A stretch of DNA of 64,000 bases from Laetmonice hystrix (lineage: Eukaryota). The stretch spans positions 29,514,001-29,578,000 of the forward strand of contig OZ249436.1 in NCBI GenBank assembly GCA_965235115.1, given 5' to 3'. Both the position numbers and the translations under genes were made by a program. Shown piece after piece: positions 15,173-45,658 of the stretch (positions within the stretch are counted from its first letter, which is position 1; every line of letters begins with the position of its first letter). A model generated the notes under the pieces. It did not search any database and was not told the origin of the DNA. It saw nothing but the letters and a program-made list of their open reading frames with translations.

Positions 15173-16298
15173 ATATGTCGTGGCCCAGATCCCAATCTGG
15201 CCCAGTTGCCAATTGGTCCGGACCAGATGACAATTGGGATCTGGTCCGGCCCAGATACCAATTGGGATCTGGTCCGGACCAATTGGAAACTGGATCGGAC
15301 CAGATCACAATTGGGATCTGGGCTGGCCCAGATACCAATTGGGATCTGGTCCGGACCAATTGGAAACTGGACCGGACCACATCGCATCTGGGCTGGCCTG
15401 GATGCCAATTGGAATCTGGGCCGGACCAATTGGAAACTGAACCGGACCAGATCCCAATTGGCTGGGCTGGCCTGGATGCCAATCGAGGTTTTCAGTCATA
15501 GGATTGGGATCTGGTCTGGACCAGTTGGCAACTGGTCCAGGCGAAATAATGATTTCAATCTGGTCCAGCCCAGATCCCAATCCAATGACTCTTGGTCCAG
15601 ATCCAAATCCTGGTTCCTGGTATTTGTTCATTGTAACTATTTTCGTTGACAATGTGCTGTGTAGGAAAAAAAATAGTCCATGGGATAAAAGGAACATTTT
15701 TTCAAAAACATTTTCCTTGCCCTTTGAAGAGGGGGTTGCAATGCGATGGAGTGCTATTTAATTGGGTATTTTGTATTTATTTATTTTAACTAGGCCTATT
15801 TTCGTTTACAATGCCCTGTGTATTTGAAATAAAATACATACAATTATTTTACTAAATCCATGATGAAGAACCAGGATTTGGATCTGGACCAAGACTCATT
15901 ATTTGAAATCATTATTTCGCCTGGACCAGTTGCCAACTGGTCCGGACCAGATCCCAATCCTATGACTGAAAACCTCGATTGGCATCCAGGCCAGCCCAGA
16001 TGCCAATTGGGATCTGGTCCGGTCCAGTTTCCAATGGGTCCGGCCCAGATCCCAATTGGCATCCAGGCCAGCCCAGATGCCAATTGGGATCTGGTCCGGT
16101 CCAGTTTCCGATTGGTCCGGCCCAGATTCCAATTGGCATCCAGGCCAGCCCAGATCCCAATTGTGATCTGGTCCGGTCCAGTTTCCAATTGGTCTGGACC
16201 AGATCCCAATTGGTATCTGGGCCGGACCAGATCCCAATTGGGATCTGGTCCGGACCAATTGGCAACTGGGCCAGATTGGGATCTGGGCCACGACATAT
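15173..16298. mobile_element. Foldback/MITE with about 440-bp modular inverted arms and an AT-rich spacer
   Basis: atatgtcgtggcccagatcccaatctggcccagttgccaattggtccggaccag at 15173 is the reverse complement of the sequence ending at 16298; arms are about 15173-15620 and 15860-16298, built of short ggaccagatcccaattgg modules. TSD is ambiguous (TA or AC). Confidence 0.93.
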
Positions 16299-24000: not shown

Positions 24001-24130
24001 GGGGGGGGGCGGGCAACCAATATTTCTTTTTTTCTCATAGGGGGCCTGTAGGCCCATACACCTTACTGAATTTTCCCTAATTACCCCCTCTACCCATCAG
24101 CCAGATTTTTCTCCAACCCCCAACCCTCCA
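21054..24130. repeat. Direct duplication of the ASB upstream region (copy 1 21054-~22480, copy 2 22698-~24130; offset 1644)
   Basis: Identical ORFs at 21889 and 23533; the first ~1.06 kb is near-identical and the last ~0.36 kb visibly diverged. Confidence 0.97.
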
Positions 24131-24904
24131 CATGTCCAGAAATTCATGACGGGCGCCTTGCGCATGCGCAGTTCCGGCCCATTGGGCCCACAGCCAAATC
24201 GAATGGAGAGATGATTTAAATTGCCTGTAGAGGGCGGTAAAGTACAGCAGTGCCATTTGCCTGATCGCTGTTCGAAGCAGAGAGGTTTTATAGGTATTCT
24301 CTCAAAAAATCGTAGCAATCTGACCATTTTTTCCTATTTACATGGTGTGGTTGAAGTATGAGGACCCAGACCAGCCTTTTAACGGGAAGGCGAGGGCATT
24401 TTCCGCATGTCACAACATTATCAACGGTGCTCAGCACCACAATAATGGGAGATACTCTAGTTGCACGATTAATAGACAGATGGCGACACTGTACTGTACC
24501 CGTCAAGGTATGTTTCAAGGAATTCCGAGGAAATTTTTTCGTTTACATGGGGGTGTTGAAGTTGAGCTGTTTTCACTGACATGAAACATGTTAGGTATGG
24601 AAGAAACTGGGGGAGTCCCGCTTCAGAAAAAAACCTAAAATAAATTCCTTTCAAGACCAGGGCCCGGTTTTTTGGGTACATCCCTCATGGTAACTTTACA
24701 CGAAATTTCTCTAAGACAGCATATATGATGCCTCACACGACGACGACACCAGCAACTCCCCACGAAGTTGTGGTGGGAAGGGTGCAAATCTGTTGACCTT
24801 CCACGAAATTTCTCTAAGACACCTTATATTATGCCTCACACGACGATAACACCAGCAACTCCCCATAAATTCTTGTGGGAAGCCTGCAAATGTGTTCAGG
24901 ACAT

Positions 24905-27860
24905 TGGCAGTTTGAGATTTTCATGACGACGACGACACTCGAAGGTGGCAGTTTGGGATTTTCATGACGACGACGACACTCGGAGCTGGAAGTATGAGAT
25001 TTTCATGACGACGACGACGACACTCGGAGCTGGCAGTTTGGGATTTTCATGACGACGACGACACTCGGAGCTGGCACTTTGGGATTTTCATGACGACGAC
25101 GACACTCGGAGCTGGCACTTTGAGATTTTCATGACGACGACGACACTCGGAGCTGGCACTTTGAGAATTTCATGACGACGACGACACTCGGAGGTGGCAG
25201 TCTGAGATTTTTATGACGACGACGACACTCGGAGCTGGCACTTTGAGATTTTCATGACGACGACGACACTCGGAGCTGGCAGTCTGAGATTTTCATGACG
25301 ACGACGACACTCGGAGCTGGAAGTTTGATATTTTCATGATGACGACGACACTCGGAGCTGGCACTTTGAGATTTGCATGACGACGACGACACTCGGAGGA
25401 GGCAGTATGAGATTTTCATGACGACGACGACACTCGGAGGTGGCAGTTTGAGATTTTCATGACGACGACGACACTCGGAGCTGGCAGTTTGGGATTTTCA
25501 TGACGACGACGACACTCGGAGCTGGCACTTTGAGATTTTCATGACGACGACGACACTCGGAGCTGGAAGTTTGATATTTTCATGACGACGACGACACTCG
25601 GAGCTGGCACTTTGAGATTTGCATGACGACGACGACACTCGGAGGAGGCAGTATGAGATTTTCATGACGACGACGACACTCGGAGCTGGCAGTATGAGAT
25701 TTTCATGACGACGACGACACTCGGAGCTGGCAGTATGAGATTTTCATGACGACGACGACACTCGGAGGTGGCAGTTTGAGATTTTCATGACGACGACGAC
25801 ACTCGGAGCTGGCACTTTGAGAATTTCATGACGACGACGACACTCGGAGGTGGCAGTCTGAGAATTTCATGACGACGACACTCGGAGCTGGCACTTTTGA
25901 GATTTGCATGACGACGACGACACCCGGAGGAGGCAGTATGAGATTTTCATGACGACGACGACACTCGGAGGTGGCAGTTTGAGATTTTCATGACGACGAC
26001 GACACTCGGAGCTGGCACTTTGAGAATTTCATGACGACGACGACACTCGGAGCTGGCAGTATGAGATTTTCATGACGACGACGACACTCGGAGCTGGCAG
26101 TATGAGATTTTCATGACGACGACGACACTCGGAGGTGGCAGTTTGAGATTTTCATGACGACGACGACACTCGGAGCTGGCACTTTGAGAATTTCATGACG
26201 ACGACGACACTCGGAGGTGGCAGTCTGAGAATTTCATGACGACGACGACACTCGGAGGTGGCAGTCTGAGAATTTCATGACGACGACGACACTCGGAGCT
26301 GGAAGTTTGATATTTTCATGACGACGACGACACTCGGAGCTGGCACTTTGAGATTTGCATGACGACGACGACACTCGGAGGAGGCAGTATGAGATTTTCA
26401 TGACGACGACGACACTCGGAGGTGGCAGTTTGAGATTTTCATGACGACGACGACACTCGGAGCTGGCACTTTGAGAATTTCATGACGACGACGACACTCG
26501 GAGGTGGCAGTCTGAGAATTTCATGACGACGACGACACTCGGAGGTGGCAGTCTGAGAATTTCATGACGACGACGACACTCGGAGCTGGCACTTTGAGAA
26601 TTTCATGACGACGACGACACTCGGAGGTGGCAGTATGAGATTTTTATGACGACGACGACACTCGGAGCAGGCACTTTGGGATTTACATGACGACGACGAC
26701 ACTCGGAGCTGGCAGTTTGAGATTTACATGACGACGACGACACTCGGAGGTGGCAGTTTGAGATTTTCATGACGACGACGACACTCGGAGCTGGCAGTCT
26801 GAGATTTTTTTATGACGACGACGACACTTGGAGCTGGAAGTTTGAGATTTTCATGACGACGACGACACTCGGAGCTGGCACTTTGAGATTTTCATGACGA
26901 CGACGACACTCGGAGCTGGCAGTATGAGATATTCATGACGACGACGACACTCGGAGCTGGCAGTATGAGATTTTCATGACGACGACGACACTCGGAGCTG
27001 GCAGTATGAGATTTTCATGACGACGACGACACTCGGAGGTGGCAGTATGAGATTTTCATGACGACGACGACACTCGGAGGTGGCAGTTTGAGATTTTCAT
27101 GACGACGACGACACTCGGAGCTGGCACTTTGAGAATTTCATGACGACGACGACACTCGGAGGTGGCAGTCTGAGAATTTCATGACGACGACGACACTCGG
27201 AGGTGGCAGTCTGAGAATTTCATGACGACGACGACACTCGGAGCTGGCACTTTGAGAATTTCATGACGACGACGACACTCGGAGGTGGCAGTCTGAGATT
27301 TTCATGACGACGACGACACTCGGAGCCGGCACTTTGGGATTTACATGACGACGACGACACTCGGAGCTGGCACTTTGAGATTTTCATGACGACGACGACA
27401 CTCGGAGCTGGCACTTTGAGATTTTCATGACGACGACACTCGGAGCTGGCAGTTTGAGATTTACATGACGACGACGACACTCGGAGCTGGCACTTTGAGA
27501 ATTTCATGACGACGACGACACTCGGAGCTGGCACTTTGAGAATTTCATGACGACGACGACACTCGGAGCTGGCAGTTTGAGATTTTCATGACGACGACGA
27601 CACTCGGAGCTGGCAGTTTGAGATTTACATGACGACGACGACACTCGGAGCTGGCATTTTGGGATTTTCATGACGACGACGACACTCGGAGCTGGCAGTC
27701 TGGGATTTTCATGACGACGACGACACTCGGAGCTGGCAGTTTGAGATTTTCACGACGACGACGACACTTGAAGGTGGCAGGTTGAGATTTTCATGACGAC
27801 GACGACAGTGGGAGCTGGGAGTCTGCCAGAAATACGACGACGACGACACTCAGAAGTAGG
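24905..27860 (+). repeat. 41-bp tandem array (gagattttcatgacgacgacgacactcggagctggcagttt), about 70 copies, left arm of the giant element
   Basis: Direct tandem repetition. Confidence 0.97.
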
Positions 27861-28504
27861 ATGTTGAGAGCCCTAGTTATAGGCCTAAAGCTAAGCCCAG
27901 TTGCCTGAGTTGGTTCATCGCATAGCCTATTTCCTACGGTAGGCTTACCAAGGCTAAACACTTAACATTAAAAGGCGACGGTACTTTAACATTTGTAAAA
28001 ATAAAATGTTTTTAGCGCTAAATTATACTTTGAGTTTTGTAGAACTTTGTACTAACAGCTTTAATTGTCCCATTTAATCTAAACAAAGTTCAACAAAATC
28101 ATGCCGTTTTGGGGAATGATGTCCCACATATAAACAGATTTCATAAGGTTGGCCGGTTTGCCCCACAAAATTTTCTGGCTTGCCTACGGGGCCTACAACT
28201 CGTGTATGTTAACTTAGAACACTTCCCCCCCCCCCCCACACACTTCTGTTTTGCTTCCGACATCACTGCATAGATGCTTAAATCTACCCAGATTTTATGA
28301 CACTGACAGTTATGCTCCCAATACATAAAAGAAATGCAACCGAACACTGACCTCGTAGATCTAATGCAGATTACTCTGACGCTTCCCAATAGGCCTATCA
28401 GACTCAGAGTTAGATCTAGATAGAGTCATTAGGTACCGTGGTACCATATAGGCTAGCAGAGACATAGTCATAGGCCTCAGCCTAGAGTAGTCAGTAGACT
28501 AGAG

Positions 28505-28537
28505 CATAGACATAGAATCAGTGATTCTATGTCTATG
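28505..28537. mobile_element. 33-bp palindromic mini-element with 7-bp TSD (P-like CATAG...CTATG ends)
   Basis: catagacatagaatca-g-tgattctatgtctatg (16-bp perfect arms) flanked by actagag on both sides. Confidence 0.8.
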
Positions 28538-28847
28538 ACTAGAGTCATAGATCAAGTTTAGTACGGTACTGGATCTATGGTAACGTGTACTGACTAGGTC
28601 GACCCTAGTCGAGGATGCCATGTCCTACCTTCAAACTGCCAGAACTCTATCTGTTGCCATTTTGATCTATCAAAACACAATAATTCTGTTAATTTGCGAG
28701 TAGGTCCTTATTTCTTAGCACTGCCGCTCACCATGGTGCCAGTTCTCGTGTCCCAGATATCCAAACAGAGGATCTGACTGGTCCCCTGCTAACTCCTCCC
28801 GCCCTCGGAGATACTCAGTTCAACAGGGAACCAGTCAGACAGAGGAT

Positions 28848-28890
28848 TAGCCTGGTGCCCGGTCTATGGTAGGCACAGGGCACCAGGCTA
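28848..28890. mobile_element. 43-bp mini-element with 13-bp TIR and 9-bp TSD (TAG...CTA ends, Academ-like)
   Basis: tagcctggtgccc...gggcaccaggcta flanked by acagaggat on both sides. Confidence 0.8.
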
Positions 28891-29319
28891 ACAGAGGATA
28901 GTCTGTGCTACGCGACTGTCAACTTCAAAATATTAAAAATACGATATGAGTATCAAGACAGTGCTAGGCTATCGTGTCTACGCGGAGGGCGTCAGCTTAG
29001 TTGCTGAGGTTTCGCCGCTTGAAAATTATCATCAACTATTGCTGTGATCTGCGATTTCCCTTGAACTTCTCGTTACAGTCATATCGTCCTAATGTTGCAG
29101 TTTCTCTGTAGGGTTTGGCACATTAAACATCTGTTTTTCTCTAAAAGTTCTAGGAATAGCACATATTTTATTATATCTAGTGGTCCACAACATGATACAT
29201 ATTGTAAAACACGCAAAAACTAAATATTAATTTTTTTACCCAAGGTACAATGCGGTGCATCAAACAGGTGTCAAATTGGACACCTGGCAGCTGCATGATA
29301 TTTGACCTAAATAATTCCG

Positions 29320-29519
29320 GCATTGCATTTTTACTAATTTTAGACGCTGATTTTTGTTTTTAGCGCCACGGGAATAATATCAAAGCTATTGAGCTGAGAC
29401 TTTAACATACCAGAGACAATATCATGAAGTGATATTAAGAGAAATTTTATTGAATTATAATGCATAGTTTTTGAAATATTAAAGTTTAAAGTTCGGGGCG
29501 TTTTTTTTTATCCACCCGA
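29320..29519 (-). mobile_element. Tc1/mariner-family terminal fragment (about 200-bp TIR, TA flank)
   Basis: Its reverse complement matches 36354-36546 (tcgggtggataaaaaaaaacgccccgaa...gcaatgccg). Confidence 0.75.
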
Positions 29520-29996
29520 TATAATATGACCCCATCAGATTTGCCTGAATTTTTTTTTTGGTGGAAGGCCTATTGGTAGATAGAAAAGTCCTCAATTTCT
29601 AGGTCCCTAAAGTTGCTAAACCCAACGTTTTTTTCCCAGGGCCTCTAGAAGGGTCAGTTTTTTGAGGGCCAAAATGACTTCTTACAAAATGAGCTTTTGA
29701 AATTGAAATATCTCAATGCGCCAATGAGTGCCCAGCTTCATTTTGATTGATGTCAATCTCCGATGGAAGGAGTTACAGAAAATTGCAAAAGTTTGGTGGG
29801 CAGTTGAGGGTGCCACCTATAGGGGGCGCTGCAAAACGCTACTTTTTGCTGAATTTAAATATTTGAGGCATTTCTGGACTGTGCCCTCAACATCCCAAGC
29901 TAGTTTATGCATGATATGATTCCATTAGCAAGCCCAATACTAAGCAACTTGAAATGAATGTGGAATAATGAAGGTGCGAGAGTATAGGTGGCGCTC

Positions 29997-30452
29997 AAGT
30001 CGGTCAAAATGTAAAATTTGTTGTTTTTGGGGGTCGCATATCTCAATGCGCCCTCATCAGATTTGAATGAAACATTTTTTATCAGGCAGCCCTGTATGTC
30101 TACTAACTGTTATAAAGATTTTAGTGGTGTTCAGCTGACCATCGAAATGTGGTTAAGCTTACAAACACGAATTTGTGTTGATATCCAAGATGGCCGCCAA
30201 GCGGCCATTTTGAAGAATATAATTTATAAGCCCCCGTTGGGGGCTAAAAAGAGATGACTGTGCACAGTGTCACATACTTGTGGAATCATTGCCAGAAAAG
30301 CGTTAATACAGCTGAACCCCACTATAATCTTTCGACAGTTAGTAGAGACATACAGGGCTGCCTGATAAGAAATATTTCATTCAAATCTGATGAGGGCGCA
30401 TTGAGAAATGTGACCCCGAAAAACACGCAAAATTTTGCGTTTCGACCGACTT
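29997..30452. repeat. Inverted repeat with about 115-bp arms (29997-30110 and 30335-30452), probable DNA-transposon remnant
   Basis: tctcaatgcgccctcatcagatttgaatgaaa...atcaggcagccctgtatgtc and its reverse complement. Confidence 0.8.
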
Positions 30453-33400
30453 AACCCACAGGGGTGCTTATCCCAGAGCAGATGATGAAACCGGTTGACA
30501 ATGACAGGGCTGAAAGAACCCAAAATATAACTTTAACCAGTAGAGCTAACCTTAACCCAGAGCAGAGGGCGAAACCAGTTGAGAATGGCAGGGCTGCAAA
30601 AACCCAAAATGACTACTAACCCTATACCAAAACTTAACCTTAACCCATGGGGGACGCAACCCAGAGGAGAGACCGAGACTGGTCAGATGACAAGGCAGCA
30701 AATACCCACAAATATAACTAACCCTATCCCAAACCTTAACCTTAACCCACGGGGGTGCTTATTCCAGAGCAGAAGATGAAACCGGTTGACAATGACAGGG
30801 CTGAAATAACCCAAAATATAACTTTAACCAGTAGAGCTAACCTTAACCCTTAGGGTGCCTTAACCCAGAGCAGAGGTGAAACCAGTTGACAATGGCAGGG
30901 CTGCAAGAACCCAAAATGACTACTTGCCCTATCCAAAAACTTAACCTTAACCCATGAGGGACTCAACCAAGAGGACAGACCGATGCCAGATGAAAAGGCA
31001 GCTAGTACCGGTACCCACAAAATAACTAACCCTATCGGATCCTGAACGTTAACCTTAACCCTATCCCAAACCTTAACCTTAACCCACGGGGGTGCTTATC
31101 CCAGAGCAGAGGATGAAACCGGTTGACAATGACAGGGCTGCAAGAACCCAAAATATAACTAACCTTAACCAGAACCCTACCCTTAACCCTTAGGGCGCCT
31201 TAACCCAGAGCTGAGGGCAAAACCAGTTGGCAACGGCAGGGCTGCAAGAATCCAAAATGACTACTAACCCTATCCCAAAACTTAACCTTAACCCATGGGG
31301 GACTTAACCAAGAGGAGAGACCGAGACTGGTCAGATGACAAGGCAGCAAGTACCCACAATATAACTAACCCTATGCTGAACCTTAACCTTAACCCACAGG
31401 GGTGCTTATCCCAGAGCAGAAGATGAAACCGGTTGACAATGACAGGGCTGAAAGAACCCAAAATATAACTTTAACCAGTAGAGCTAGCCTTAACCCAGAG
31501 CAGAGGGCGAAACCAGTTGAGAATGGCAGGGCTGCAAAAACCCAAAATGACTACTAACCCTATACCAAAACTTAACCTTAACCCATGGGGGACGCAACCC
31601 AGAGGAAAGACCGAGACTGGTCAGATGACAAGGCAGTAAATACCCACAAATATAACTAACCCTATCCCAAACCTTAACCTTAACCCACGGGGGTGCTTAT
31701 TCCAGAGCAGAAGATGAAACCGGTTGACAATGACAGGGCTGAAATAACCCAAAATATAACTTTAACCAGTAGAGCTAACCTTAACCCTTAGGGTGCCTTA
31801 ACCCAGAGCAGAGGTGAAACCAGTTGACAATGGCAGGGCTGCAAGAACCCAAAATGACTACTTGCCCTAGATCCAAAAACTTAACCTTAACCCATGAGGG
31901 ACTCAACCAAGAGGACAGACCGATGCCAGATGAAAAGGCAGCTAGTACCGGTACCCACAAAATAACTAACCCTATCGGATCCTGAACGTTAACCTTAACC
32001 CTATCCCAAACCTTAACCTTAACCCACGGGGGTGCTTATCCCAGAGCAGAGGATGAAACCGGTTGACAATGACAGGGCTGCAAGAACCCAAAATATAACT
32101 AACCTTAACCAGAACCCTACCCTTAACCCTTAGGGCGCCTTAACCCAGAGCTGAGGGCAAAACCAGTTGGCAACGGCAGGGCTGCAAGAATCCAAAATGA
32201 CTACTAACCCTATCCCAAAACTTAACCTTAACCCATGGGGGACTTAACCAAGAGGAGAGACCGAGACTGGTCAGATGACAAGGCAGCAAGTACCCACAAT
32301 ATAACTAACCCTATGCTGAACCTTAACCCTAACCCACAGGGGTGCTTATTCCAGAGCAGAAGATGAAACCGGTTGACAATGACAGGGCTGAAAGAACCCA
32401 AAATATAACTTTAACCAGTAGAGCTAACCTTAACCCAGAGCAGAGGGCGAAACCAGTTGAGAATGGCAGGGCTGCAAAAACCCAAAATGACTACTAACCC
32501 TATACCAAAACTTAACCTTAACCCATGGGGGACGCAACCCAGAGGAGAGACCGAGACTGGTCAGATGACAAGGCAGCAAATACCCACAAATATAACTAAC
32601 CCTATCCCAAACCTTAACCTTAACCCACGGGGGTGCTTATTCCAGAGCAGAAGATGAAACCGGTTGACAATGACAGGGCTGAAATAACCCAAAATATAAC
32701 TTTAACCAGTAGAGCTAACCTTAACCCTTAGGGTGCCTTAACCCAGAGCAGAGGTGAAACCAGTTGACAATGGCAGGGCTGCAAGAACCCAAAATGACTA
32801 CTTGCCCTATCCAAAAACTTAACCTTAACCCATGAGGGACTCAACCAAGAGGACAGACCGATGCCAGATGAAAAGGCAGCTAGTACCGGTACCCACAAAA
32901 TAACTAACCCTATCGGATCCTGAACGTTAACCTTAACCCTATCCCAAACCTTAACCTTAACCCACGGGGGTGCTTATCCCAGAGCAGAGGATGAAACCGG
33001 TTGACAATGACAGGGCTGCAAGAACCCAAAATATAACTAACCTTAACCAGAACCCTACCCTTAACCCTTAGGGCGCCTTAACCCAGAGCTGAGGGCAAAA
33101 CCAGTTGGCAACGGCAGGGCTGCAAGAATCCAAAATGACTACTAACCCTATCCCAAAACTTAACCTTAACCCATGGGGGACTTAACCAAGAGGAGAGACC
33201 GAGACTGGTCAGATGACAAGGCAGCAAGTACCCACAATATAACTAACCCTATGCTGAACCTTAACCTTAACCCACAGGGGTGCTTATCCCAGAGCAGAAG
33301 ATGAAACCGGTTGACAATGACAGGGCTGAAAGAACCCAAAATATAACTTTAACCAGTAGAGCTAGCCTTAACCCAGAGCAGAGGGCGAAACCAGTTGAGA

Positions 33401-35048
33401 ATGGCAGGGCTGCAAAAACCCAAAATGACTACTAACCCTATACCAAAACTTAACCTTAACCCATGGGGGACGCAACCCAGAGGAAAGACCGAGACTGGTC
33501 AGATGACAAGGCAGTAAATACCCACAAATATAACTAACCCTATCCCAAACCTTAACCTTAACCCACGGGGGTGCTTATTCCAGAGCAGAAGATGAAACCG
33601 GTTGACAATGACAGGGCTGAAATAACCCAAAATATAACTTTAACCAGTAGAGCTAACCTTAACCCTTAGGGTGCCTTAACCCAGAGCAGAGGTGAAACCA
33701 GTTGACAATGGCAGGGCTGCAAGAACCCAAAATGACTACTTGCCCTAGATCCAAAAACTTAACCTTAACCCATGAGGGACTCAACCAAGAGGACAGACCG
33801 ATGCCAGATGAAAAGGCAGCTAGTACCGGTACCCACAAAATAACTAACCCTATCGGATCCTGAACGTTAACCTTAACCCTATCCCAAACCTTAACCTTAA
33901 CCCACGGGGGTGCTTATCCCAGAGCAGAGGATGAAACCGGTTGACAATGACAGGGCTGCAAGAACCCAAAATATAACTAACCTTAACCAGAACCCTACCC
34001 TTAACCCTTAGGGCGCCTTAACCCAGAGCTGAGGGCAAAACCAGTTGGCAACGGCAGGGCTGCAAGAATCCAAAATGACTACTAACCCTATCCCAAAACT
34101 TAACCTTAACCCATGGGGGACTTAACCAAGAGGAGAGACCGAGACTGGTCAGATGACAAGGCAGCAAGTACCCACAATATAACTAACCCTATGCTGAACC
34201 TTAACCCTAACCCACAGGGGTGCTTATTCCAGAGCAGAAGATGAAACCGGTTGACAATGACAGGGCTGAAAGAACCCAAAATATAACTTTAACCAGTAGA
34301 GCTAACCTTAACCCAGAGCAGAGGGCGAAACCAGTTGAGAATGGCAGGGCTGCAAAAACCCAAAATGACTACTAACCCTATACCAAAACTTAACCTTAAC
34401 CCATGGGGGACGCAACCCAGAGGAGAGACCGAGACTGGTCAGATGACAAGGCAGCAAATACCCACAAATATAACTAACCCTATCCCAAACCTTAACCTTA
34501 ACCCACGGGGGTGCTTATTCCAGAGCAGAAGATGAAACCGGTTGACAATGACAGGGCTGAAATAACCCAAAATATAACTTTAACCAGTAGAGCTAACCTT
34601 AACCCTTAGGGTGCCTTAACCCAGAGCAGAGGTGAAACCAGTTGACAATGGCAGGGCTGCAAGAACCCAAAATGACTACTTGCCCTATCCAAAAACTTAA
34701 CCTTAACCCATGAGGGACTCAACCAAGAGGACAGACCGATGCCAGACGAAAAGGCAGCTAGTACCGGTACCCACAATTATATACTAACCCTATCGGATCC
34801 TGAACGTTAACCTTAACCCTATCCCAAACCTTAACCTTAAGTTAACCCACGGGGGTGCTTATCCCAGAGCAGAGGATGAAACCGGTTGACAATGACAGGG
34901 CTGCAAGAACCCAAAATATAACTAACCTTAACCAGAACCCTACCCTTAACCCTTAGGGCGCCTTAACCAAGAGCTGAGGGCAAAACCAGTTGGCAACGGC
35001 AGGGCTGCAAGAATCCAAAATGACTACTAACCCTATCCCAAAACTTAA

Positions 35049-35381
35049 AGTGCAACTGACATCACATAGGTAACTTTACTGATCTAGATAGATCACTTTG
35101 AGTTGTAGCCGTATCCCTGATAGTTTTTCTGAGAAGTCCTCTCAATTTAGAAAAATATTGAAAATTCGAATCTCGCGCCTCATCACAGTCTCACTCCTGC
35201 CTATTCTTTACCATTGCCCCTGATGACGTCAGCAGGGGAATTGGTCTTTAAAACGGCTTACAATTACATACAGTTCATATTCTTGTACAATAACCGCTCC
35301 TTTAAGTTAAACAACAACAAATTACATGTATCATCAGGATCTGGCACTAAATTTCATGTAAATTTTGATGTCTGTTGGACT
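35049..35381. mobile_element. Kolobok-like MITE with TTAA TSD inserted into the satellite
   Basis: ttaa|agtgcaactgacatca ... tgatgtctgttggact|ttaa (14/16 TIR match); the satellite resumes in register. Confidence 0.85.
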
Positions 35382-36353
35382 TTAACCTTAACCCATGGGG
35401 GACTTAACCAAGAGGAGAGACCGAGACTGGTCAGATGACAAGGCAGCAAGTACCCACAATATAACTAACCCTATGCTGAACCTTAACCTTAACCCACAGG
35501 GGTGCTTATCCCAGAGCAGAAGATGAAACCGGTTGACAATGACAGGGCTGCAGGAACCCAAAATATAACTAACCTTAACCAGAACCCTAACCTTAACACT
35601 TAGGGCGCCTTAACCCAGAGCAGAGGGCGAAACCAGTTGACAATGGCAGGGCTGCAAGAACCCAAAATGACTACTTGCCCTATCCAAAAACTTAACCTTA
35701 ACCCATGGGGGACGCAACCCAGAGGAGAGACTGAGACTGGTCAGATGACAAGGCAGCAAATACCCACAATTAATATAACTAACCCTATCCTGAACCTTAA
35801 CCTTAACCCACGGGGGTGCTTATCCCAGAGCAGAGGCTGAAACCGGTTGACAATGACAGGGCTGCAAGAACCCAAAATATAACCTTAACCAGAACCCTAC
35901 CCTTAACCCACAGGGCGCCTTAACCCAGAGCTGAGGGCAAAACCAGTTGGCAACGGCAGGGCTGCAAGAATCCAAAATGACTACTAACTCTATCCTAACT
36001 AACTAACTGGGTGCCAGTGAGTAGCAGAATGACTGACGCTGACGCCACAAGCTCACCTCTACTAGTTTAATAGATTTATATCAGAACTGACGCCGACGCC
36101 ATCAGCCCACCTCCCCTTGTGTATAGTTGTAGACTAGAACTGACGCTGACGCCATGTGGATTTATCCCTGCCTGGGTGCCAGTGAGTAGCAGAATGACTG
36201 ACGCCGACGCCACAAGCTCACCTCTCCTAGTTTATAGATTTATATCAGAACTGACGCCATCGGGTCATTCCATATTGATGAACTCAACCAGAGGTCCCAT
36301 GGCCACCGATTCAGATTTGGCTCCAACAAATTGTGGGAGTACCTTTACTTATA

Positions 36354-36713
36354 TCGGGTGGATAAAAAAAAACGCCCCGAATTTTAAACTTCAATATTTC
36401 AAAAAGTAATGATTGTAATTCAATTAAATTTTTCTTCATATCACTTCATGATGTTCTCTCTTAGTTGTTAATGTTACAAGTAAATAGCTTGGATAATATT
36501 TCCGTGGGGCTAAAAACAAAAATCATCGTACAAAAGCGCAATGCCGTGCTAAAGCAAAGTGTAGTTGCACCTAGAGTGCCTGGCCTTACACTCGAGTAGG
36601 TGGTCAATTGGTCCCCCGTTTTCACTTCATACTGCTCTCAGTCTCTTTTTCCATGAGCCAATGCACTTCCTGATCTCTGATAGGGAAATATCTTCCCAAC
36701 ATTGGGAAATTAT
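36354..36713 (-). mobile_element. 3' end of a Tc1/mariner element (TIR plus transposase C-terminal remnant)
   Basis: TA|tcgggtggataaaaaaaaacgcccc TIR followed by a minus-strand transposase-like peptide. Confidence 0.8.
36591..36713 (-). pseudogene. Tc1/mariner transposase C-terminal fragment with in-frame stop
   Basis: Manual translation IISQCWEDISLSEIRKCIGSWKKRLRAV*SENGGPIDHLLE fits the W..I....I...I.SW..RL.AV....GG...H tail of Tc1/mariner transposases. Confidence 0.8.
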
Positions 36714-37842
36714 ATGCAACGTTTTGAATGTGTTGCTAAACGTGATAATGATACGATTTCCCTTGATGAAACCGGTTGACAAAGACAGGGCTGCAAGAAC
36801 CCAAAATATAACTAACCTTAACCAGAACCCTACCCTTAACCCTTAGGGCGCCTTAACCCAGAGCAGAGGGCGAAACCAGTTGAGAATGGCAGGGCTGCAA
36901 AAACCCAAAATGACTACTAACCCATTACCAAAACTTAACCTTAACCCATGGGGGACGCAACCCAGAGGAGCTAGACTGAGACTGGTCGGATGACAAGGCA
37001 GCAAATACCCACAATTATAACTAACCCTATCCCAAACCTTAACCTTAACCCACGGGGGTGCTTATTCCAGAGCAGAAGATGAAACCGGTTGACAATGACA
37101 GGGCTGAAAGAACCCAAGATATAACTTTAACCAGTAGAGCTAACCTTAACCCTTAGGGTGCCTTAACCCACAGCAGAGGGCGAAACCAGTTGACAATGGC
37201 AGGGCTGCAAGAACCCAAAATGACTACTTGCCCTATCCAAAAACTTAACCTTAACCCATGGGGGACTCAACCCAGAGGACAGACCGATGCCAGGTGAAAA
37301 GGCAGCTAGTACCCACAATTAACTAACCCTATCCTGAACCTTAACCTTAACCCACAGGGATGCTTATCCCAGAGCAGAGGATGAAACCGGTTGACAATGA
37401 CAGGGCTGCAAGAACCCAAAATATAACCTTAAAGTTAAAGGGATGGAAAACCCACACGGCAAATTAGGTTTCGTAGACCAAATAAAACACCAGCATTTAC
37501 CTCAGGGCAATAAATGCCACAATTACGTTGTCTGAATGAAGTAATTTTACGTGTAACCGCCCGATGTGTGACGCCGCTGGTTCTGACCTTGACCTACTGG
37601 TGTGTTCATCACCTCGGACGTTTACAAACGTTTACAAAGACTGGGACTCCAAACATCGTGTAGACAAGGTCTGTGAGCAGAGCGTAATGTTACACATTTA
37701 TGCCGTGGTGTCTGCATTCAGCTGTGATGAACACACAAGTAAATAAAGTCCTAATTTCATATAAAACCGTATTATTGTAAAGCGCTGAGCACTGCTCAAA
37801 AACCTCCAGCCTAGGCTACTGGTCGGGTGTCTGGGGCTGGAA

Positions 37843-38136
37843 CAATCTAATTAAAATTAGATCTTGGTATTCCGCGTCTCTCTCGGCTGTGTAGGTGCTG
37901 GCTGCGCTCCATACCTAGATCTAAGGACATCCCATTAGGGGTCACCTCAGGTTGACCTCGGGATTCAGCCAATCAGCGAGCCGCCTACGAAATCTTCGGT
38001 GTGCGCTCGTAGGCAATTTGAACGGCACACTTGAATCTGGGTCAAAGGTCAGCCTGAGGTGACCCCATACGGGATGCCGTTAGATCCTAGTATGTAGCGC
38101 ATGCGAAATAACTAAGATCTAATTTTAATTAGATTG
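37843..38136. mobile_element. Palindromic MITE (294 bp), CA...TG ends, imperfect 9-bp TSD
   Basis: caatctaattaaaattagatctt ... aagatctaattttaattagattg; inner arms ggggtcacctcagg / cctgaggtgacccc; flanks gggctggaa and gggctggga. Confidence 0.8.
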
Positions 38137-38721
38137 GGGCTGGGAGAACCCTAAGATTCTGACCGTCTGGCCGGCGATAACCTCCTCCACACTCGCATGG
38201 ATTCCATCTGTTTGTTCTGTTGATCATGTTGGCAAAGAACGTATTAGTTTTAAACTACGTATTTTGTTACATAATTATTACAATGTTACACTGGCAAAAA
38301 GACGCGCCTCATTAAGTCAACAATGGCAGAGCCCTGAATCAGGATAGATCTAATGTAGACAGTAGACTATTTTGCTGTCTAGCTCTCATTCTATCGAAAG
38401 AGCAAGCAGTAAAATGGCCAGTAGATATTCTCAGAATAGCCATAATTTACCCCTGTAAACTAGCAGGCCCCTAATCAGACACTGTGTGAAAGAGCTAAAA
38501 TAGATTGGAGCAGGCTGAGTGGCTGTTGTGATATTTTAACGTCATTATCAGAGTTTTTTTGAACTTTTAAATAGACAAACAAAGCTCGCTGTATTCATAA
38601 CTATGATCCTGAGGAGTCTTGCTTTTAAAGAAAGACATCTGTGGAGACCGTACGATGTGGGGAATAATTCTGGTTACTTTTTTGTATCTATAGGTCGTCG
38701 CGACAGATTTTGCCTGGCAAA

Positions 38722-39415
38722 CAGGTTGGCAAAAACACGGGTTTTAAGCTTATTGCCCAGCCCAGTGGGTTTTACCGGGTTTACCCGGGTTTTACGGGTA
38801 ATACTGGGTTTTATGACAATGTCACGCTTCCCCTGGTCCAACTAAAGTGGTACGGTAAACATTTAAAACATTCATAATATTTTTCATTCAAAAAATATTC
38901 ATGAGAATGTACTAAATTGATACACACTGGAACCCGTGAGTCTGGTCTGATTGTATCATTGTAAAGAGTAGATAATCCCTGTCCTATACTCCAGACCGTC
39001 TGGCAACTCATGACTACACTGAATCAATGGAATACACTGGAATCAGTGAACCGGTAAAGAGAGGGGTGCACCTGTGCCTTCTAGCTCCTCTGTGTATACT
39101 GACTGCCTTGTCTAAACTCTACATGGTACCTAGTCAGATTTTATAGGTAGGCCTCTGAATATAATGTCCTGCAACTGAGAAATTTTCAGTCAGTGTGTAT
39201 CAGTACTTGACTGTATAGCTATTCAGGTACTGACCTACCAGTATGAAGCATAGAGACCCTGTTTGGCAATTTTTTTCCATTTTTTGAGAATTGTTATTGT
39301 ATATGATTTTGTTGTTATTGCCCAGTATTGCCCACTTAGCTGATTTTAGGGATATTGCCCAGCCCGGGTTTTCACGGACATTATTACCCGCCCGGGTATT
39401 GCCCGGCCAACCCTG
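38722..39415. mobile_element. hAT-like MITE with 8-bp TSD
   Basis: Ends caggttggc ... gccaaccctg, subterminal attgccc/gggtttt motifs, flanks ctggcaaa and ctggcaag. Confidence 0.8.
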
Positions 39416-39669
39416 CTGGCAAGCGCTGCTAGGTAGAAAGGTCACAAGTTTTGACGGTTTTATACTTTTTTGATGGTTTTCAAATGGTCATACAAGAAAG
39501 ATTCCTTAAATCTGCTTATTAAATTACATACCGGACAAAAAAAAATATCTCTAGTTTCTTTTGCAACAGAGGTCAGAAAAGCTAAGCTTACTTTTGGTTA
39601 CACATCTACGATCTAGTTCCCGACTTGGTGAAAAGGTTAGGCTACCGGAGCTGTCCTTGCTTCAACTTC

Positions 39670-41375
39670 CAACGAAGGGCTACAAGAATGATCCCAGGCC
39701 TCAGAGGCCTTGATTACGGACAGCGTCTAGCCAGGCTACACCTCCCCACACTTTCCTATCGGAGGCTGAGGGGGGATATGGTCGATTCTCACCAACTGTC
39801 GACAACTGGAAATTCTCATTTCTGTTCTAAATAAATCTTTCAAAGTTATTTACTTTTGATTTCCCCCTATTCCATCGTATCCGACGTGTCGAGATCTTCA
39901 CAAGGAACCCTACATTTGCATATCTATCATCAAAATCAAGGGAGATAGAGCAAAATTAAACACCAGGAAAGGCCATTTTTTCACAAAAATCGCACAGATC
40001 ATATAGTTTAAAGCATCTACGATAAGAAAAAATAAAACGAATGTAAGTTTTTTGATGATATTCAAGTAGTCTAAGGATTAAAGATATATTTTTTGTCTGT
40101 GCATCATGGGAATATTATTATGGAGATACACTGAGTGACTTGATAATGATTGTGTAATTTTTAGTAGTTACCCGTCATGCTTTAATCAGCTGTCCCTGGT
40201 TCTCTCCAAATATAAGGTGCACACGAAAAAAATGTGCTATCATAATGTTTAATACCTCTATATGTATGAAGGTAAAAATAGAGAGAAAATACCTTAAACA
40301 TTGAACATGGTTCTCATGGACTTCTAAAACAATGGTTTGGTGTAGTTTTCTCGTAGTTACCCGTATGCACTTTACTATTGTACATCTCGTGTAGTTTTCA
40401 CATTTAATTATCTGTGGTCTGCCTATAATATCTTTATAATGTAAGGGACAATATGTGAAAATGATGAAATTGTACAAGCCCTGTAATGGTCAGTACAGAG
40501 GTCAAGGTAACCAGCGTGGTTACCCGTCACGCGTGGTTACCCGTATCCCCCTGATGGTAATGCATGGAAATAGTCTGTGCCCGCCACCTATCGACGAGAT
40601 GTGAAAGTATTACGTCAGAAACAGACGTCAAACAACGTCGTTAGGTGTTTGCGGTCGTTTCACCGGCAAGTCTAGTCAACTTATGGTGTCACGGGTAACT
40701 ACGGGGCGTACGGGTAACTACGGGGCGTACGGGTAACTACAGTCTTTTAGGGAGGAAAACTGATGTAATAGAAGCTTCGCTGGTGGTATTACTTTGTTTT
40801 AACCTATCAGATATTTGAGTTCTTTATATTTTTATCCAGATATGCCACGAACAAAACCGAAATACATTTACGTAGGTTTAGGGGCATACGGGTAACTACA
40901 CAGAATCCTTTGCTCTGTTGCCATGGTTACAGTTTTATGATTTAATGTTCCCAACTTAGCCTGTGGATACCCTAACCCCTGTACTCTGTGCACACAAAAG
41001 ATTTTTATTATTATACCAAATTTATTTTTTACCCCATTATATACCAGTTGTCGACAGTTGGTGAGAATCGACCATATGATCGAAACATACAAAATATTAA
41101 CCGGGAAGTATGACAGCGACGTTACAGAAGGATTTCTAAAACTCAGACAGGATAGCAACACAAGAGGACACAGCCTAAAAATTTACAAGGAGAGGCCCAG
41201 ATTAGACTGCAGAAAATACTCCTTCTCTTAGTCTTACAGTTACACTAAGTTACAGATTAGCAGATCCCTGGAATAGTCTACAGTACAGAACGTAGATCTA
41301 GTACAATCACCAACAACAGCAGCTTTTGAAAGGAGACTAGACAAATTCTGGGAAGATCACGATTTAATGTACCCG
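39670..41375 (+). pseudogene. CR1-clade LINE ORF2 3' fragment, split by a DNA transposon
   Basis: QRRATRMIPGLRGLDYGQRLARLHLPTLSYRRLRGDM rejoins IETYKILTGKYD...TRGHSLKIYKERPRLDCRKYSFS...WNSL...AFERRLDKFW once 39780-41077 is removed; typical CR1 ORF2 C-terminus. Confidence 0.9.
39780..41073. mobile_element. Non-autonomous TIR element (1294 bp), 30-bp perfect TIR, ATAT TSD (Sola-like)
   Basis: atat|ggtcgattctcaccaactgtcgacaactgg ... ccagttgtcgacagttggtgagaatcgacc|atat; internal gtagttacccgt motifs on the left half and acgggtaactac on the right half. Confidence 0.9.
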
Positions 41376-43289
41376 GTACAACTTCCGAGCCCCCCCCCCC
41401 CCCCCCCCCCCCCCCACTCTTAAGCATGCACAATCAATGAGTAACACTACCAGTTGCGAGCTGGCACTAGAGCCGGTGTGCGTCCATTTCGGCTGCCTGC
41501 CGGTTCGGCGTAGCAAAGGGACCTAGGCCTAGATCAGCCAGAAGAGGACCAGTCGGTCCAGTGCAGTGTAACTTGTAGAACAGTAAACCAGGCTGGGGAA
41601 GTAAACTTTTCAAACCAGATTTCCTTTATTACATTTTATAGTACCATATAAATGAAACAAAATTCCACCTGCATGATTCTTAGACACTACTTCACTAACC
41701 TACTATTTCAGATCAATCTGAAACATCCTAATTTCCGATGCTGAATGCATTTCTGCTGCACAGAAAGACGATGGCGATGCGGCTTAAAATCCAACTTCAA
41801 CTTGACCTTGGTAGGCTTGGACTGCAGTGGTGGCGCGAACTAAATCACACCACACACTGACTCACTCTGCACTCTGTACAGTGGGTTCCTACCTTAGGCT
41901 ACATGAACACCTGAACTAGATACACGATCGTGTATGAAAATTTCCGAAAATTGTTGAAATCATTACTATGGAATTTGGCAAACTGGGGAACCGATGGTCG
42001 GCACGTGAGGTTTTGTTTACGGTAAATAGGGCGCCGAAGTCTCGTGACACAGTTACGGATTTTCTGGATAGGAGGTACAAATGGAGCGTCAATGTTGACA
42101 CACAATTGTTGCGTCACAAATTTCCCCATTGGTTTAACATAGGATGAAGAGACATCGTTCCAAAGATCGGCCTAGTCTTGAAGATTTTTGTGTTGTTTTG
42201 TATAAAAGTTATATATTCAAGCATAAAACAGGTTGATACAAATATCTGGGAAGGTTTCATTACAAAGGGCAGGATAATTAAAGAGAAATCACGAGTTGAA
42301 GTTGGCAGTCGCCGTCCCCTATGGCCAGCGCAATGCTAAACAAGCGTGAGCGATAATGACGTGTCAACAAAATCGACTTTTATCGCGTTGTAACGCAACA
42401 TCTCGTGACCTACTTCGGCTCCCTATAACAGCCTCGCACCAAATTGGATAGGCCTCCCTTGTTTATTTTTAATGGACGATTATTGACCAATCGACATCTT
42501 CAAATTTCAGAGATCCCGTGCAGTGAACTAAAAAAGTATTTTTGTTTGTGCTTCTCAACGTGAGTTGCCAAGTTTGTAAGAACGGGGTGCTAACTTTGCT
42601 GTGGCTTTCCCATTATCGGAAACTGGCTATGAGCATCAGCCTGACCGCCGCCAACGGCATGCAACGGCATGTCCTGCGGTAGGGGCAGGGCTGCCAGTAC
42701 GGCAGTCGACTACAGTTAGGCCGGTGCCTGATGCCGTGATGGCTGCTTCAGTTCAGCGTTCAGGTTCAAGTGAGTGAGTGAGTGAGCAGCCTAGATATAA
42801 TAATTAATATGCTATACTATATAATATAGGCTACTACTACGAGGGTATTATATGCTAATAATTAGTATAGGCTAAATTGTATAGTATAATAGACTATAGC
42901 CTACACCTACTGGTTTGGGGAGGCTATGGCATTTAGGCGTCCAGTGAGTTTAATGAGAAATGGATCTAGACTCTATATCATAAATGCAGAAAACAAAGCC
43001 AAGGACTTAGTAAAGTGGCAATGCCGTTTGTGAAAGTCATTGAAGGTTTAAAAAAAAATTTAGTCAGCATCATCTTGGTTTCATGAACAGGATGGTTAGT
43101 TTATCTTAAATATCAGATTCCTTTTTACAATATTTGAAGCATATAATTGACATAAAGTCCAGGCATCCACAAATTAAAATCCCATCTCCAGTGTTGTGCT
43201 GCAGCCAGTAATGCCATCAAGAACTAATTACTGCTTTTGTAATGCGACTCTTACAAGGAATGGATCAATGAACGATTGAAAATCCCACC

Positions 43290-45050
43290 CCTGAGTGTCG
43301 TCGTCGTCGTGCTGCTGCCAGACTCCCAGCTCCAAGTGTCGTCGTCGTCATGAAAATCTCAAACTGCCACCTCCGAGTGTCGTCGTCGTCATGCTGCAGC
43401 CAGACTCCCAGCTCCAAGTGTCGTCGTCGTCCTGAAAATCTCAAACTGGCTGCTCAGATTTTTGTTCACTATAATATTCAGTTTGAAGCATAACAAAAAT
43501 TAATATAAAATGAAAGCATTTAAGGATTTATGAATGAAAATCTCATCTCTGAGTGTCGTCGTCGTCATAGTTCTGGTAGACTCCCAGGTCCGACTGTCGT
43601 CGTCGTCATGAAAATCTCAAACTGGCTGCTCAGATTTTTGTTCACTATAATATTCAATTTGAAGCATAACAAAAATTTATATAAAATGAAAGCATTTATA
43701 AATATTGTCTCTGAGTGTCGTCGTCATAGTTCTGGTAGACCCCCAGTTCTGAGTGTCATCGTCGTCACGTTTCTGCCAGACTCCCAGCTCCGAGTGTCGT
43801 CGTCGTCATGAAAATCCCAAACTACCACCTTCGAGTGTCGTCGTCGTCATGAAAATCTCAAACTGCCAGCTCCGACTGTCGTCGTCGTCATGAAAATCTC
43901 AGACTACCACCTTCGAGTGTCGTCGTCGTCATGAAAATCTCAAACGGGCAGCTCCGAGTGTCGTCGTCGTCATGAAAATCTCAAAATGCCAGCTCCGAGT
44001 GTCGTCGTCGTCATGAAAATCTCAGACTGCCAGCTCCGAGTGTCGTCGTCGTCATGAAAATCCCAAACTGCCAGCTCCGAGTGTCGTCGTCGTCATGAAA
44101 ATCTCAAACAGCCAGCTCCGAGTGTCGTCGTCGTCATGAAAATCTCAGACTGCCAGCTCCGAGTGTCGTCGTCGTCATGAAAATCTCAAAATGCCAGCTC
44201 CGAGTGTCGTCGTCGTCATGAAAATCTCAAACAGCCAGCTCCGAGTGTCGTCGTCGTCATGAAAATCTCAGATGGCCAGCTCCGAGTGTCGTCGTCGTCA
44301 TGAAAATCCCAAACTACCACCTTTGAGTGTCGTCGTCGTCATGAAAATCTCAGACTGCCAGCTCCGAGTGTCGTCGTCGTCATGAAAATCCCAAACTACC
44401 ACCTTCGAGTGTCGTCGTCATGAAAATCTCAAACTGCCAGCTCCGACTGTCGTCGTCGTCATGAAAATCTCAGACTGCCACCTTCGAGTGTCGTCGTCGT
44501 CATGAAAATCTCAAATGGGCAGCTGCGAGTGTCGTCGTCGTCATGAAAATCTCAAAATGCCAGCTCCGAGTGTCGTCGTCGTCATGAAAATCTCAAACAG
44601 CCAGCTCCGAGTGTCGTCGTCGTCATGAAAATCTCAGATGGCCAGCTCCGAGTGTCGTCGTCGTCATGAAAATCCCAAACTACCACCTTCGTGTGTCGTC
44701 GTCGTCATGAAAATCTCAAACTGCCAGCTCCGAGTGTCGTCGTCGTCATGAAAATCTCAGACTGCCACCTTCGAGTGTCGTCGTCGTCATGAAAATCTCA
44801 AACGGGCAGCTCCGAGTGTCGTCGTCGTCATGAAAATCTCAGATGGCCAGCTCCGAGTGTCGTCGTCATGAAAATCCCAAACCACCGCCTTCGAGTGTCG
44901 TCGTCGTCATGAAAATCTCAAACGGCCAGCTCCGAGTGTCGTCGTCGTCATGAAAATCTCAAACTGCCACCTCCGTGCGTCGTCGTCGTCATGCTGCTGC
45001 CAGACTCCTAGCTCCAAGTGTCGTCGTCGTCATGAATTTTTCAAACTGCC
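43290..45050 (-). repeat. Same 41-bp array in inverted orientation, right arm of the giant element (about 30 contiguous copies plus a degenerate inner part)
   Basis: ccgagtgtcgtcgtcgtcatgaaaatctc is the reverse complement of the left-arm unit; the inner part has a twice-repeated AT-rich spacer (about 43450-43545 and 43625-43710). Confidence 0.97.
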
Positions 45051-45658
45051 TGCTCACAAAATTTCGTGGGAAGTTACCATGGGGAAATAACCGTTTTTTG
45101 GTCATCGTCTCAGACTCATGCTTATCTCATCTCATGCCATGGTGAGTCTCGGTGGAGATCAAATCGGGGTTTTTTAGTTGAGATTGAGCTTTGGTTCAGT
45201 TGAGAAATCGTCTCAGTCGTCTCACTGGCCGAAAATGGAACAATCGTGACGACACAATGGGTGCAACAATCACCAGTCCATTGTGACGTAACAAAGGTAA
45301 CGAGCGATGCTAGCGCTTGCAGCGCTCCCTGCGGATTTTTCATGTCAGCTTTTTCTGGGTATGAACCCCAAAGGCTTAGAACCAGGGCGAGTCAAATGGG
45401 GGCACTTTACCGCCCTGTTCACGTTGTCACCGGACAACATTTGGCGGTACATCTCGACCAAGAGCACGGTCCACAACCACCAGGACGGTAGGACCGTAGG
45501 CCTACCCTCTCCTAATTTTGGCCGACTTTGACAATCATAAGGTGGCTTCCGACAGCATGCAGTTGGTAGGCCTATCGTAGCTGATTCGACTAGGCCTAAA
45601 CGAATCGGGAAAGTTGACCAAATCAACACGAACTATGTCGTGATTATTCGGCGATCCT

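Follow-up and report, generated by a model that had tools for sequence, protein, structure and literature searches.

The window, a stretch of 64,000 nucleotides of contig OZ249436.1 of Laetmonice hystrix, carries a gene-less element that very probably arose by deletion from a foldback-type DNA transposon of 49.7 kb; the DDE transposase predicted in full-length copies of the family is likely to have mobilised it in trans. The original prediction had described a non-coding foldback transposon with satellite arms; this holds for the window copy, in which no piece matched the transposase and helicase profiles, but the family also comprises 49.7-kb copies with two genes.

Structure of the element

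The features of the window copy are summarized in Table 1. The matching termini with a perfect 8-bp duplication, the 41-bp repeat in inverted arms and the ~7-kb interior satellite were found as predicted, and the predicted CR1 fragment corresponds to a reverse-transcriptase tail, which we take to be CR1-like from its motif and into which, in the window copy, a 1.3-kb insert was later placed. The window copy also contains several short inverted-repeat elements, and older ones are found in the left interior (27823..30449). The amount of cargo added after insertion had been left open: approx. 2.0 of the 20.4 kb are private to the window copy and about 90% is shared with other copies. The satellites travel with the element, as had been proposed.

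Table 1. Features of the foldback element in the window (window positions)
Feature	Position	Strand	Remarks
Whole non-autonomous element, 20,418 bp	24675..45092	+	Probably derived from the gene-bearing 49,660-bp form by internal deletion
Left 8-bp target-site duplication, GTTTTTTG	24667..24674	.	Supported by empty-site contigs
Right 8-bp target-site duplication, GTTTTTTG	45093..45100	.	
Left terminal inverted repeat	24675..24708	+	27/34 positions match the right repeat; starts GG
Right terminal inverted repeat	45059..45092	-	27/34 positions match the left repeat; CC end
Two ~103-bp subterminal units	24693..24896	+	Left end only; 41-mer core in each
Left arm, 41-bp repeat	24905..27822	+	71 copies
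Right arm, inverted 41-bp repeat	43285..45055	-	31 regular copies from 43780, degenerate inward to 43285
Regular part of right inverted 41-bp array	43780-45055	-	31 copies
Left interior, common to other copies	27823..30449	+	93-99.5% to short copies, whole or part
Deletion junction, common to 8/8 short copies	30450..30452	.	~33 kb including both genes lost; 3-bp microhomology
~104-bp satellite, higher-order repeats, interrupted	~30450..37432	+	~7 kb in window copy vs ~1.4-2 kb in full-length form
324-bp insert	35049..35372	.	Window copy only
Right interior, common to other copies	37433..43284	+	Small elements nested
CR1-like reverse-transcriptase tail	39586..41370	+	Single intact piece in full-length form; split in window copy by 1.3-kb insert
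1.3-kb insert	39776..41077	.	Window copy only; 34-bp perfect inverted repeat including 4-bp ATAT duplication; internal 19-bp repeats
396-bp insert, TA-flanked	42029..42424	.	Window copy only

Copies in the genome

Ten copies with paired ends are present on six contigs, accounting for 10 of 11 left-end matches and 10 of 12 right-end matches. Each has a target duplication of its own (nine perfect ones of 8 bp and one of 9 bp, which lies in a G run) and the flanks are mutually unrelated; the original prediction, which assigned both ends to one insertion and expected paired inverted arrays with different duplications and shared interiors elsewhere in the genome, is thereby confirmed. Eight are short copies of 15-21 kb, including the window copy, and the other two are full-length, 49,660 bp each, with a single mismatch between them and different flanks; being one base apart at different sites, these two indicate that one copy moved recently.

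The arms range from 1 to 4.6 kb across copies and the arrays vary in length (core counts 64-112 left, 24-58 right). Long inverted tandem-repeat arms, with repeat numbers that differ between ends and between copies, and dispersed copies with their own duplications are in agreement with the foldback design predicted. The question whether 41-mer arrays elsewhere share these termini was answered by the 851 exact core matches in the genome, all of which fall within these elements or two orphan ends. The proposed role as a vehicle for satellite spread stands insofar as satellites are carried by the element, but there was no sign in the genome that the 41-mer has seeded free satellite arrays.

Elements of 130-213 bp with the same tips, without the 41-mer, are also flanked by 8-bp duplications; the arrays are thus dispensable for short elements. 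Of the end-pairs checked from a tip-pattern search, five were short; a sixth, seemingly 41.8 kb in length, consisted of two separate short elements.

In one sample, contigs of three sequencing runs lead from the left flank directly into the right flank. The original prediction had suggested looking for an empty allele; because the flank is a high-copy repeat, these contigs probably represent paralogous sites lacking the element, and not an empty allele. There is hardly any probability left that the two arrays inserted independently or result from segmental duplication or misassembly, given ten copies with ten different duplications and unrelated flanks, and contigs that join both flanks, even though the read evidence comes from a single sample, possibly the assembled one. 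For the C12 pair, a segmental inverted duplication was ruled out (the flanks differ, and the 46 kb between contain no inverted match).

Genes of the full-length form

The 49,660-bp copies encode two uninterrupted predicted genes, one for a DDE transposase with a DxxH motif and a CXC domain and one for a DUF3987 helicase-like ATPase; when spliced at GT/GC-AG sites, they comprise 911 and 534 codons without internal stop. A gene-bearing copy with the same ends, for which the original prediction had suggested a search, was thus found, but no Merlin/IS1595 enzyme. Among 83 transposase sequences D119, D141 and H144 are invariant, and D46 and E246 occur in at least 90%. The structural model of the transposase (pLDDT 89.8) has its best match in ISCth4 of the IS256/Mutator group (Foldseek E 3e-6; Z 15.6 over 240 residues, next best 9.8), and a sequence search of solved structures with the transposase profile matched only OTU and CXC proteins. 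The N-terminus is DUF6729-like, with a Cys/His motif in the first exon whose spacing, as judged by eye, is similar to that of the Dada CCCC finger; the CXC domain is C-terminal, and an OTU domain is found in many relatives. A search for longer fused forms returned one protein.

The helicase-like protein matches phage helicase and primase families, and its profile found no match in the solved-structure sequence search; the model is poor (pLDDT 55; ATPase part mostly below 50). No viral genes were recognised in the 49.7-kb element, and relatives in viral contigs numbered 0 among 64 candidates.

Relatives of the transposase and ownership of the gene

The transposase protein family is large, with 1,356 representatives at E<=1e-30, to which the OTU and CXC columns contribute. 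We inspected 80 foreign loci, 72 of which are whole contigs of less than 20 kb. Inverted tandem arrays are found on both sides of the homologue in three of them (L155, L160 and L186; one unit per locus), a GG-starting end is common to L155 and L203 at different flanks, and in the L132/L137/L138 family a 9-bp array and a 35-bp array lie on opposite sides; both ends with a target duplication were found in 0/80 loci, at this predominance of short contigs. Arrays also occur at contig ends in 22 of the 72 contigs (43/3,400 internal points); we attach no weight to these, since short-read contigs end at repeats in any case. A DUF3987-type gene adjoins the transposase in seven of the 80 loci, and among the 17 loci that have 3 kb or more of upstream sequence, only 4 contain the helicase gene. 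One row of the helicase N-profile is out of frame, and the match of four loci to that profile pair follows from the way it was built; the independent helicase-transposase links come from the tblastn hits and from loci L142 and L198. Around four further loci of this genome with a homologous transposase, neither recognisable ends nor inverted arrays were seen in the 50-100 kb read.

Foreign homologues that lie between inverted arrays or beside the same helicase gene suggest that the predicted transposase probably belongs to the element itself. Alternatively, the gene may be a passenger within a separate nested element, with the ends moved by another enzyme of the hAT, Mutator or Merlin type, which we consider quite improbable. 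Two 70-75-bp inverted pairs (element positions 28972/37732 and 21592/39024) do bracket the transposase gene, the first with a 6-bp direct repeat nearby, the interior of the long copy has many nested repeats, and other transposase copies sit outside such elements. However, the 70-bp arm is confined to the two long copies, the right-hand 6-mer is part of a different repeat running across the site, no empty site was seen, and a 6-bp match is expected ~0.2 times by chance in the offsets scanned; a nested 8.8-kb transposase element is therefore not supported. Furthermore, no other transposase was recognised when ten ORFs of the long copy were scanned against Pfam, and homologues in other organisms lie between inverted arrays.

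Merlin elements have GG termini. The family shares this trait and the 8-bp duplication given for Merlin (PMC10045372), and the original prediction pointed to a Merlin affinity. This was not sustained: 0 of 18 PF12762 matches (Merlin transposase) fall in the ten copies, and six of the eight Merlin loci read in this genome have other ends, one of the remaining two having two weak one-strand motif matches. Merlin was accordingly rejected as mobiliser, also with respect to the passenger alternative, and the full-length copies encode a predicted enzyme with an IS256/Mutator fold and a relationship to Dada.

Placement among known transposons

The predicted transposase is distantly related to Dada (18% identity), with a homologous core detected against a Dada-like protein of the same genome (probability 94.9%, E 4e-8). 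This reference is a DUF6729 protein taken as Dada-like by motifs read by eye (after the supplement of PMC8869645) and by U6 pieces beside a sister locus. The lineage forms a branch separate from Dada (support 99/99) in a tree without Mutator outgroup, and with the C6 transposase left out (no core by the pattern used). Likenesses to Dada are the D-D-E pattern with DxxH, a first D to second D spacing of 73 (68 in Dada; PMC3706591, PMC8869645), and a DUF6729 match in several relatives. In contrast to Dada, which these two papers describe as 4.7-11 kb in size, without terminal inverted repeats, with 6-7-bp duplications and inserted in snRNA/tRNA genes, the new element has 34-bp termini and kilobase arms, an 8-bp duplication, 0/10 sites in snRNA or tRNA genes, and a distance from second D to E of 127 rather than 176. 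Dada fingers are CCCC at the N-terminus and CCHC at the C-terminus; the C-terminal domain here is CXC.

The IS256 family resembles the new element in its ~35-bp terminal repeats and 8-bp duplication and provides the best structural match, ISCth4, but it is a bacterial single-gene element with 13-15% identity to the new transposase (PMC7780238).

The foldback architecture is known already. The foldback-type Mutators Muta1 of Aedes aegypti and Tm1 of Meloidogyne likewise have a terminal motif followed by variable-number tandem repeats, 8-9-bp duplications without sequence preference, non-autonomous derivatives and a DDE enzyme with C/DxxH (PMC5225508, PMC5499845, PMC3169594); Muta1, however, is 3.2 kb with 145-bp arms (PMC5225508, PMC5499845). 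The new family further differs from both in its DUF6729-like N-terminus, CXC domain and second, helicase-like gene. Tetris of Drosophila virilis has foldback arms with tandem repeats up to kilobase arrays, but it is described as a non-autonomous element for which no transposase is named, and satellite arrays arose from its repeats (PMC4079207), while the new family has a gene-bearing form and a 41-mer confined to elements. Teratorn is comparable in its giant size of 41 kb and more (PMC6431247), in contrast to which viral genes were not recognised here.

AcademH carries a RecQ helicase. The same type is found in KolobokH, in contrast to the DUF3987 protein of the new family; both known groups resemble it in having an accessory helicase beside a DDE enzyme (PMC9587614, PMC10045372).

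The element might instead be real but belong to a Mutator/Foldback or Dada-labelled family that Repbase or Dfam already lists, enlarged by nested insertions and with arrays as neutral by-products, a reading that we regard as rather unlikely. It would agree with the 8-11-bp duplications made by Mutator elements (PMC6446971), the existence of Muta1 and Tm1, the size of the protein family, the Dada families without defined termini listed in PMC3706591, and the variable array lengths. The Mutator/MULE traits seen are the 8-bp duplication, a DDE pattern with C/DxxH after the second D, and the IS256-like fold. Against it, the ORFs of the element gave no match to Pfam MULE (PF10551), FLYWCH or SWIM, with MULE-domain matches in 2 of 23 homologues at E 0.005 and 0.025, both below cut-off; and a literature search (DUF6729; DUF3987 with transposon; Dada with terminal repeats), covering papers and not Repbase or Dfam, yielded neither this lineage nor its helicase or size. 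This alternative bears on naming and array function, and not on mobility.

We therefore propose, tentatively and with the chances slightly against us, an undescribed superfamily-level DNA transposon lineage, widespread in marine invertebrates, that would link Dada to Mutator/IS256. A Dada-like enzyme would be combined with terminal repeats, 8-bp duplications and a lack of target specificity, the arms would consist of family-specific kilobase satellite arrays, a DUF3987 helicase of phage type would be carried along, and 50 kb of non-viral DNA would move in one step.

Proposed transposition and implications

The predicted transposase and predicted helicase of the full-length copies are likely responsible for moving the entire family together with its satellite arms. 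The transposase would bind the GG...CC tips, cut or copy the element out (the copy-out/paste-in route is that of IS256; PMC7780238), and insert it at unrelated sites through cuts staggered by 8 bp, in the manner of IS256 and Mutator enzymes. The 41-bp arrays likely provide many extra candidate binding sites, perhaps via the CXC domain, which would help pairing of ends that lie 15-50 kb apart; binding of the Muta1 transposase is stronger with more subterminal repeats (PMC5499845). A supporting role, as helicase or as transposition ATPase, is likely for the DUF3987 protein. The arrays would then drift in length by slippage or unequal exchange, and each jump would take the satellite block to a new site.

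According to a review, DNA transposition declines above ~6 kb of cargo, and the largest animal examples given there are virus-derived (PMC6431247). Whether this size limit is lifted by long repeat arms or by an accessory helicase could be tested directly in the 49.7-kb family, with the size series of 0.2, 15-21 and 50 kb with the same tips as natural controls. It would also show the behaviour of a Dada-like enzyme without small-RNA gene targeting, and would tie two domains of unknown function to transposition; the 41-mer would be a clear example of a satellite existing solely as transposon arms.

The window copy and its flanks

The originally described structure is present in the sequence: the element is flanked by an 8-bp duplication, its ~34-bp termini match (27 of 34 bases identical), the 41-bp repeat forms inverted arrays (71 copies at the left; 31 regular, inverted copies at the right), and a ~104-bp satellite takes up about 7 kb of the interior. 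In one sample, three sequencing runs gave contigs in which the left flank is joined directly to the right flank, hence both ends arrived together, as proposed for a single insertion. A search for an empty allele had also been suggested; since the flank is a high-copy repeat, these flank-to-flank contigs are probably empty paralogous sites and not the allele.

Copies in the genome

The 627-Mb genome contains 11 matches to the left end and 12 full matches to the right end, and the paired ends define ten copies on six contigs (14,960, 15,928, 16,347, 16,824, 19,307, 19,467, 20,418 [the window copy] and 21,155 bp, and two of 49,660 bp). Every target duplication is different (nine exact of 8 bp; one of 9 bp within a G run), the flanks are mutually unrelated, and a search of these flanks with Rfam gave no tRNA, U6 or other credible match. 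Across an 849-bp interior test segment, the short copies show 0-4 substitutions relative to the window copy (for one of them the alignment is limited to 461 bp), and the long copies 13. Sequence of the other copies covers 90.2% of the window copy; three inserts are private to it (324, 1,288 and 396 bp), one of which interrupts a CR1-like fragment. All ten copies show the paired ends, different duplications and common interiors that were looked for genome-wide; the family is real and recently mobile.

The 49,660-bp copies are inverted relative to each other at a distance of 46 kb. They differ by one base but have different flanks and duplications, indicating a recent local jump. A single junction is common to all eight short copies, in which position 8020 of the long form is joined to the 104-bp satellite with loss of about 33 kb. 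Its left break falls inside an inverted-repeat element that the long form keeps whole, so that deletion is the likelier direction and the short copies would derive from the long form.

A search pattern for the tip gave 447 matches in the genome, compared to none for the reversed control. Seven short end-pairs were read (about 130-213 bp), with the 8-bp duplication exact in two, with one mismatch in three and absent in two; all seven are without the 41-mer, which shows that the tips are enough at small size.

For the 41-mer, an exact 24-base core gave 851 genome matches (848 in the ten copies, three in two orphan right ends), and a core of the 104-mer gave 40 (36 in the ten copies, four in a decayed relic that also retains neighbouring interior sequence). 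No free array of either was seen in this exact core search, which diverged copies would escape. The element had been proposed as a vehicle for satellite DNA: both satellites do travel with the copies, but they spread as element parts only.

Features of the window, of the Laetmonice hystrix assembly (contigs C) and of foreign loci (L155, L202)
Feature	Location	Observation
8-bp duplication	window, flanks 24675-45092	
Private element	window 39776-41077	1.3 kb, non-coding; 4-bp ATAT duplication, GG...CC ends, inverted internal 19-bp repeats; a small foldback nested in the larger foldback
Tandem duplication	window 21054-22472 and 22697-24130	1.4 kb, 97% identical, immediately left of element
Further arrays	window 3118-4792, 5860-7276, 9975-14141, 15181-16290, 55686-56283	units 41, 67, 146, 77 and 31 bp; 77-bp arrays a pair, apparently inverted
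Older left end (L069)	C2:24,896,060 onward	75% identical; degenerate 41-mer array; no right end in 40 kb
Array (L125)	C2:33390807-33391681	tandem, about 27 copies of ~36-bp unit, the family's tip sequence; a satellite derived from the terminal repeat
Tandem units (L118, L119)	C1:54280471-54298155	five of 4.4 kb, one short element of the tip-sharing family in each
Merlin copies (L238-L241)	C2, C3, C7, C18	four of 2.8 kb, 98-99.7% identical, 437-codon frames; probably a family active recently
Further DUF3987 genes	C5:34,630,100-34,636,200; C8:6,202,305	no transposase of the window element's family within about 25-30 kb each side
Related transposase (L091, L092)	C6 about 5,100,700-5,105,000	28% identical, 1,055-codon open frame; region dense in unrelated minisatellites, ends not recognisable; may be domesticated or belong to a larger element
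Dada-like DUF6729 loci	C2:53.93 Mb, C21:10.82 Mb, C19:20.63 Mb, C6:26.88 Mb	U6 pieces (positions 68-107 and 76-107) near the C2 locus
Minus-strand ORFs	L155:14148-15629; L202:16853-18293	downstream of transposase in a foreign family without helicase gene; no Pfam match; possibly a different accessory gene

Genes of the long copies

The part deleted from the short copies comprises two divergent genes, with frames open if spliced at GT/GC-AG sites (911 codons for the transposase, 534 for the helicase gene; first exons not defined). The description as non-coding, without a transposase ORF, therefore holds for the window copy but not for the family, and the gene-encoding copies with the same ends are the two long copies, whose enzyme has a predicted IS256-like fold. 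The transposase has 92 database relatives, the few species-named ones from a sponge and cnidarians, and D-D-E and DxxH are kept across 83 sequences. Its predicted model is of high confidence (pLDDT 89.8), and the best structural match is the IS256-family ISCth4 (E 3e-6; Z 15.6 over 240 residues at rmsd 3.7; next-best match Z 9.8). Pfam detects a CXC domain only, and additionally OTU and DUF6729 in relatives. The second gene matches DUF3987, and helicase and primase families of phages are matched by a full-length relative (E 4e-15).

The transposase is very probably the element's own enzyme. Foreign homologues were surveyed in a metagenome collection (80 loci kept of 127), and arrays of one unit are inverted around the transposase gene in three of the 80 (L155, 20 bp; L160, 16 bp; L186, 17 bp); L155 and L203 have a GG end in common and different flanks. 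Seven of the 80 have the helicase gene next to the transposase (two of these loci are near-identical), and in L129, L140 and L156 it is divergent, like that of the long copies. In L160, arrays, DUF3987 gene and transposase are contained in a compact version of 7.9 kb. Counted against ownership were the reading of the foreign elements in part, none end to end; one foreign family with unlike arrays on its two sides; four homologous loci of the Laetmonice hystrix genome at which no ends were seen; and two short inverted pairs that bracket the transposase gene in the long copies. The bracketing pair with a nearby 6-bp repeat is present nowhere else, and this repeat is part of another element.

Comparison with known families

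Merlin, suggested by GG termini with 8-9-bp duplications, was rejected as the mobiliser, since the Merlin elements read in this genome end in unrelated sequence. Dada is the closest labelled relative by sequence (profile against an in-genome Dada-like protein, 94.9% probability, 18% identity), and in a tree without outgroup the transposase family and the Dada-like group lie on opposite sides of one long branch (99/99). Three defining Dada features (PMC3706591) fail in the family of the window element, which is therefore not filed as Dada. The listings of a literature search, which did not extend to Repbase, Dfam or most of the subscription literature, gave no description of the transposase lineage, so that a catalogue entry may exist. 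The foldback design is already known, and the family works like foldback-type Mutator elements; what appears undescribed is the enzyme lineage, together with the helicase and a size of 50 kb.

Proposed mechanism

The family has dispersed with 8-bp duplications, its short subfamily was founded by one deletion, and array length is variable. The transposase of the long copies would mobilise the gene-less copies in trans, and the 41-bp arrays may serve as extra transposase-binding sites by analogy with Muta1, in which transposase binding becomes stronger with more subterminal repeats (PMC5499845). Transposition could proceed by cut-and-paste, as in Muta1, or by copy-out/paste-in, as described for ISCth4 (PMC7780238), and the DUF3987 ATPase may have a helper role.
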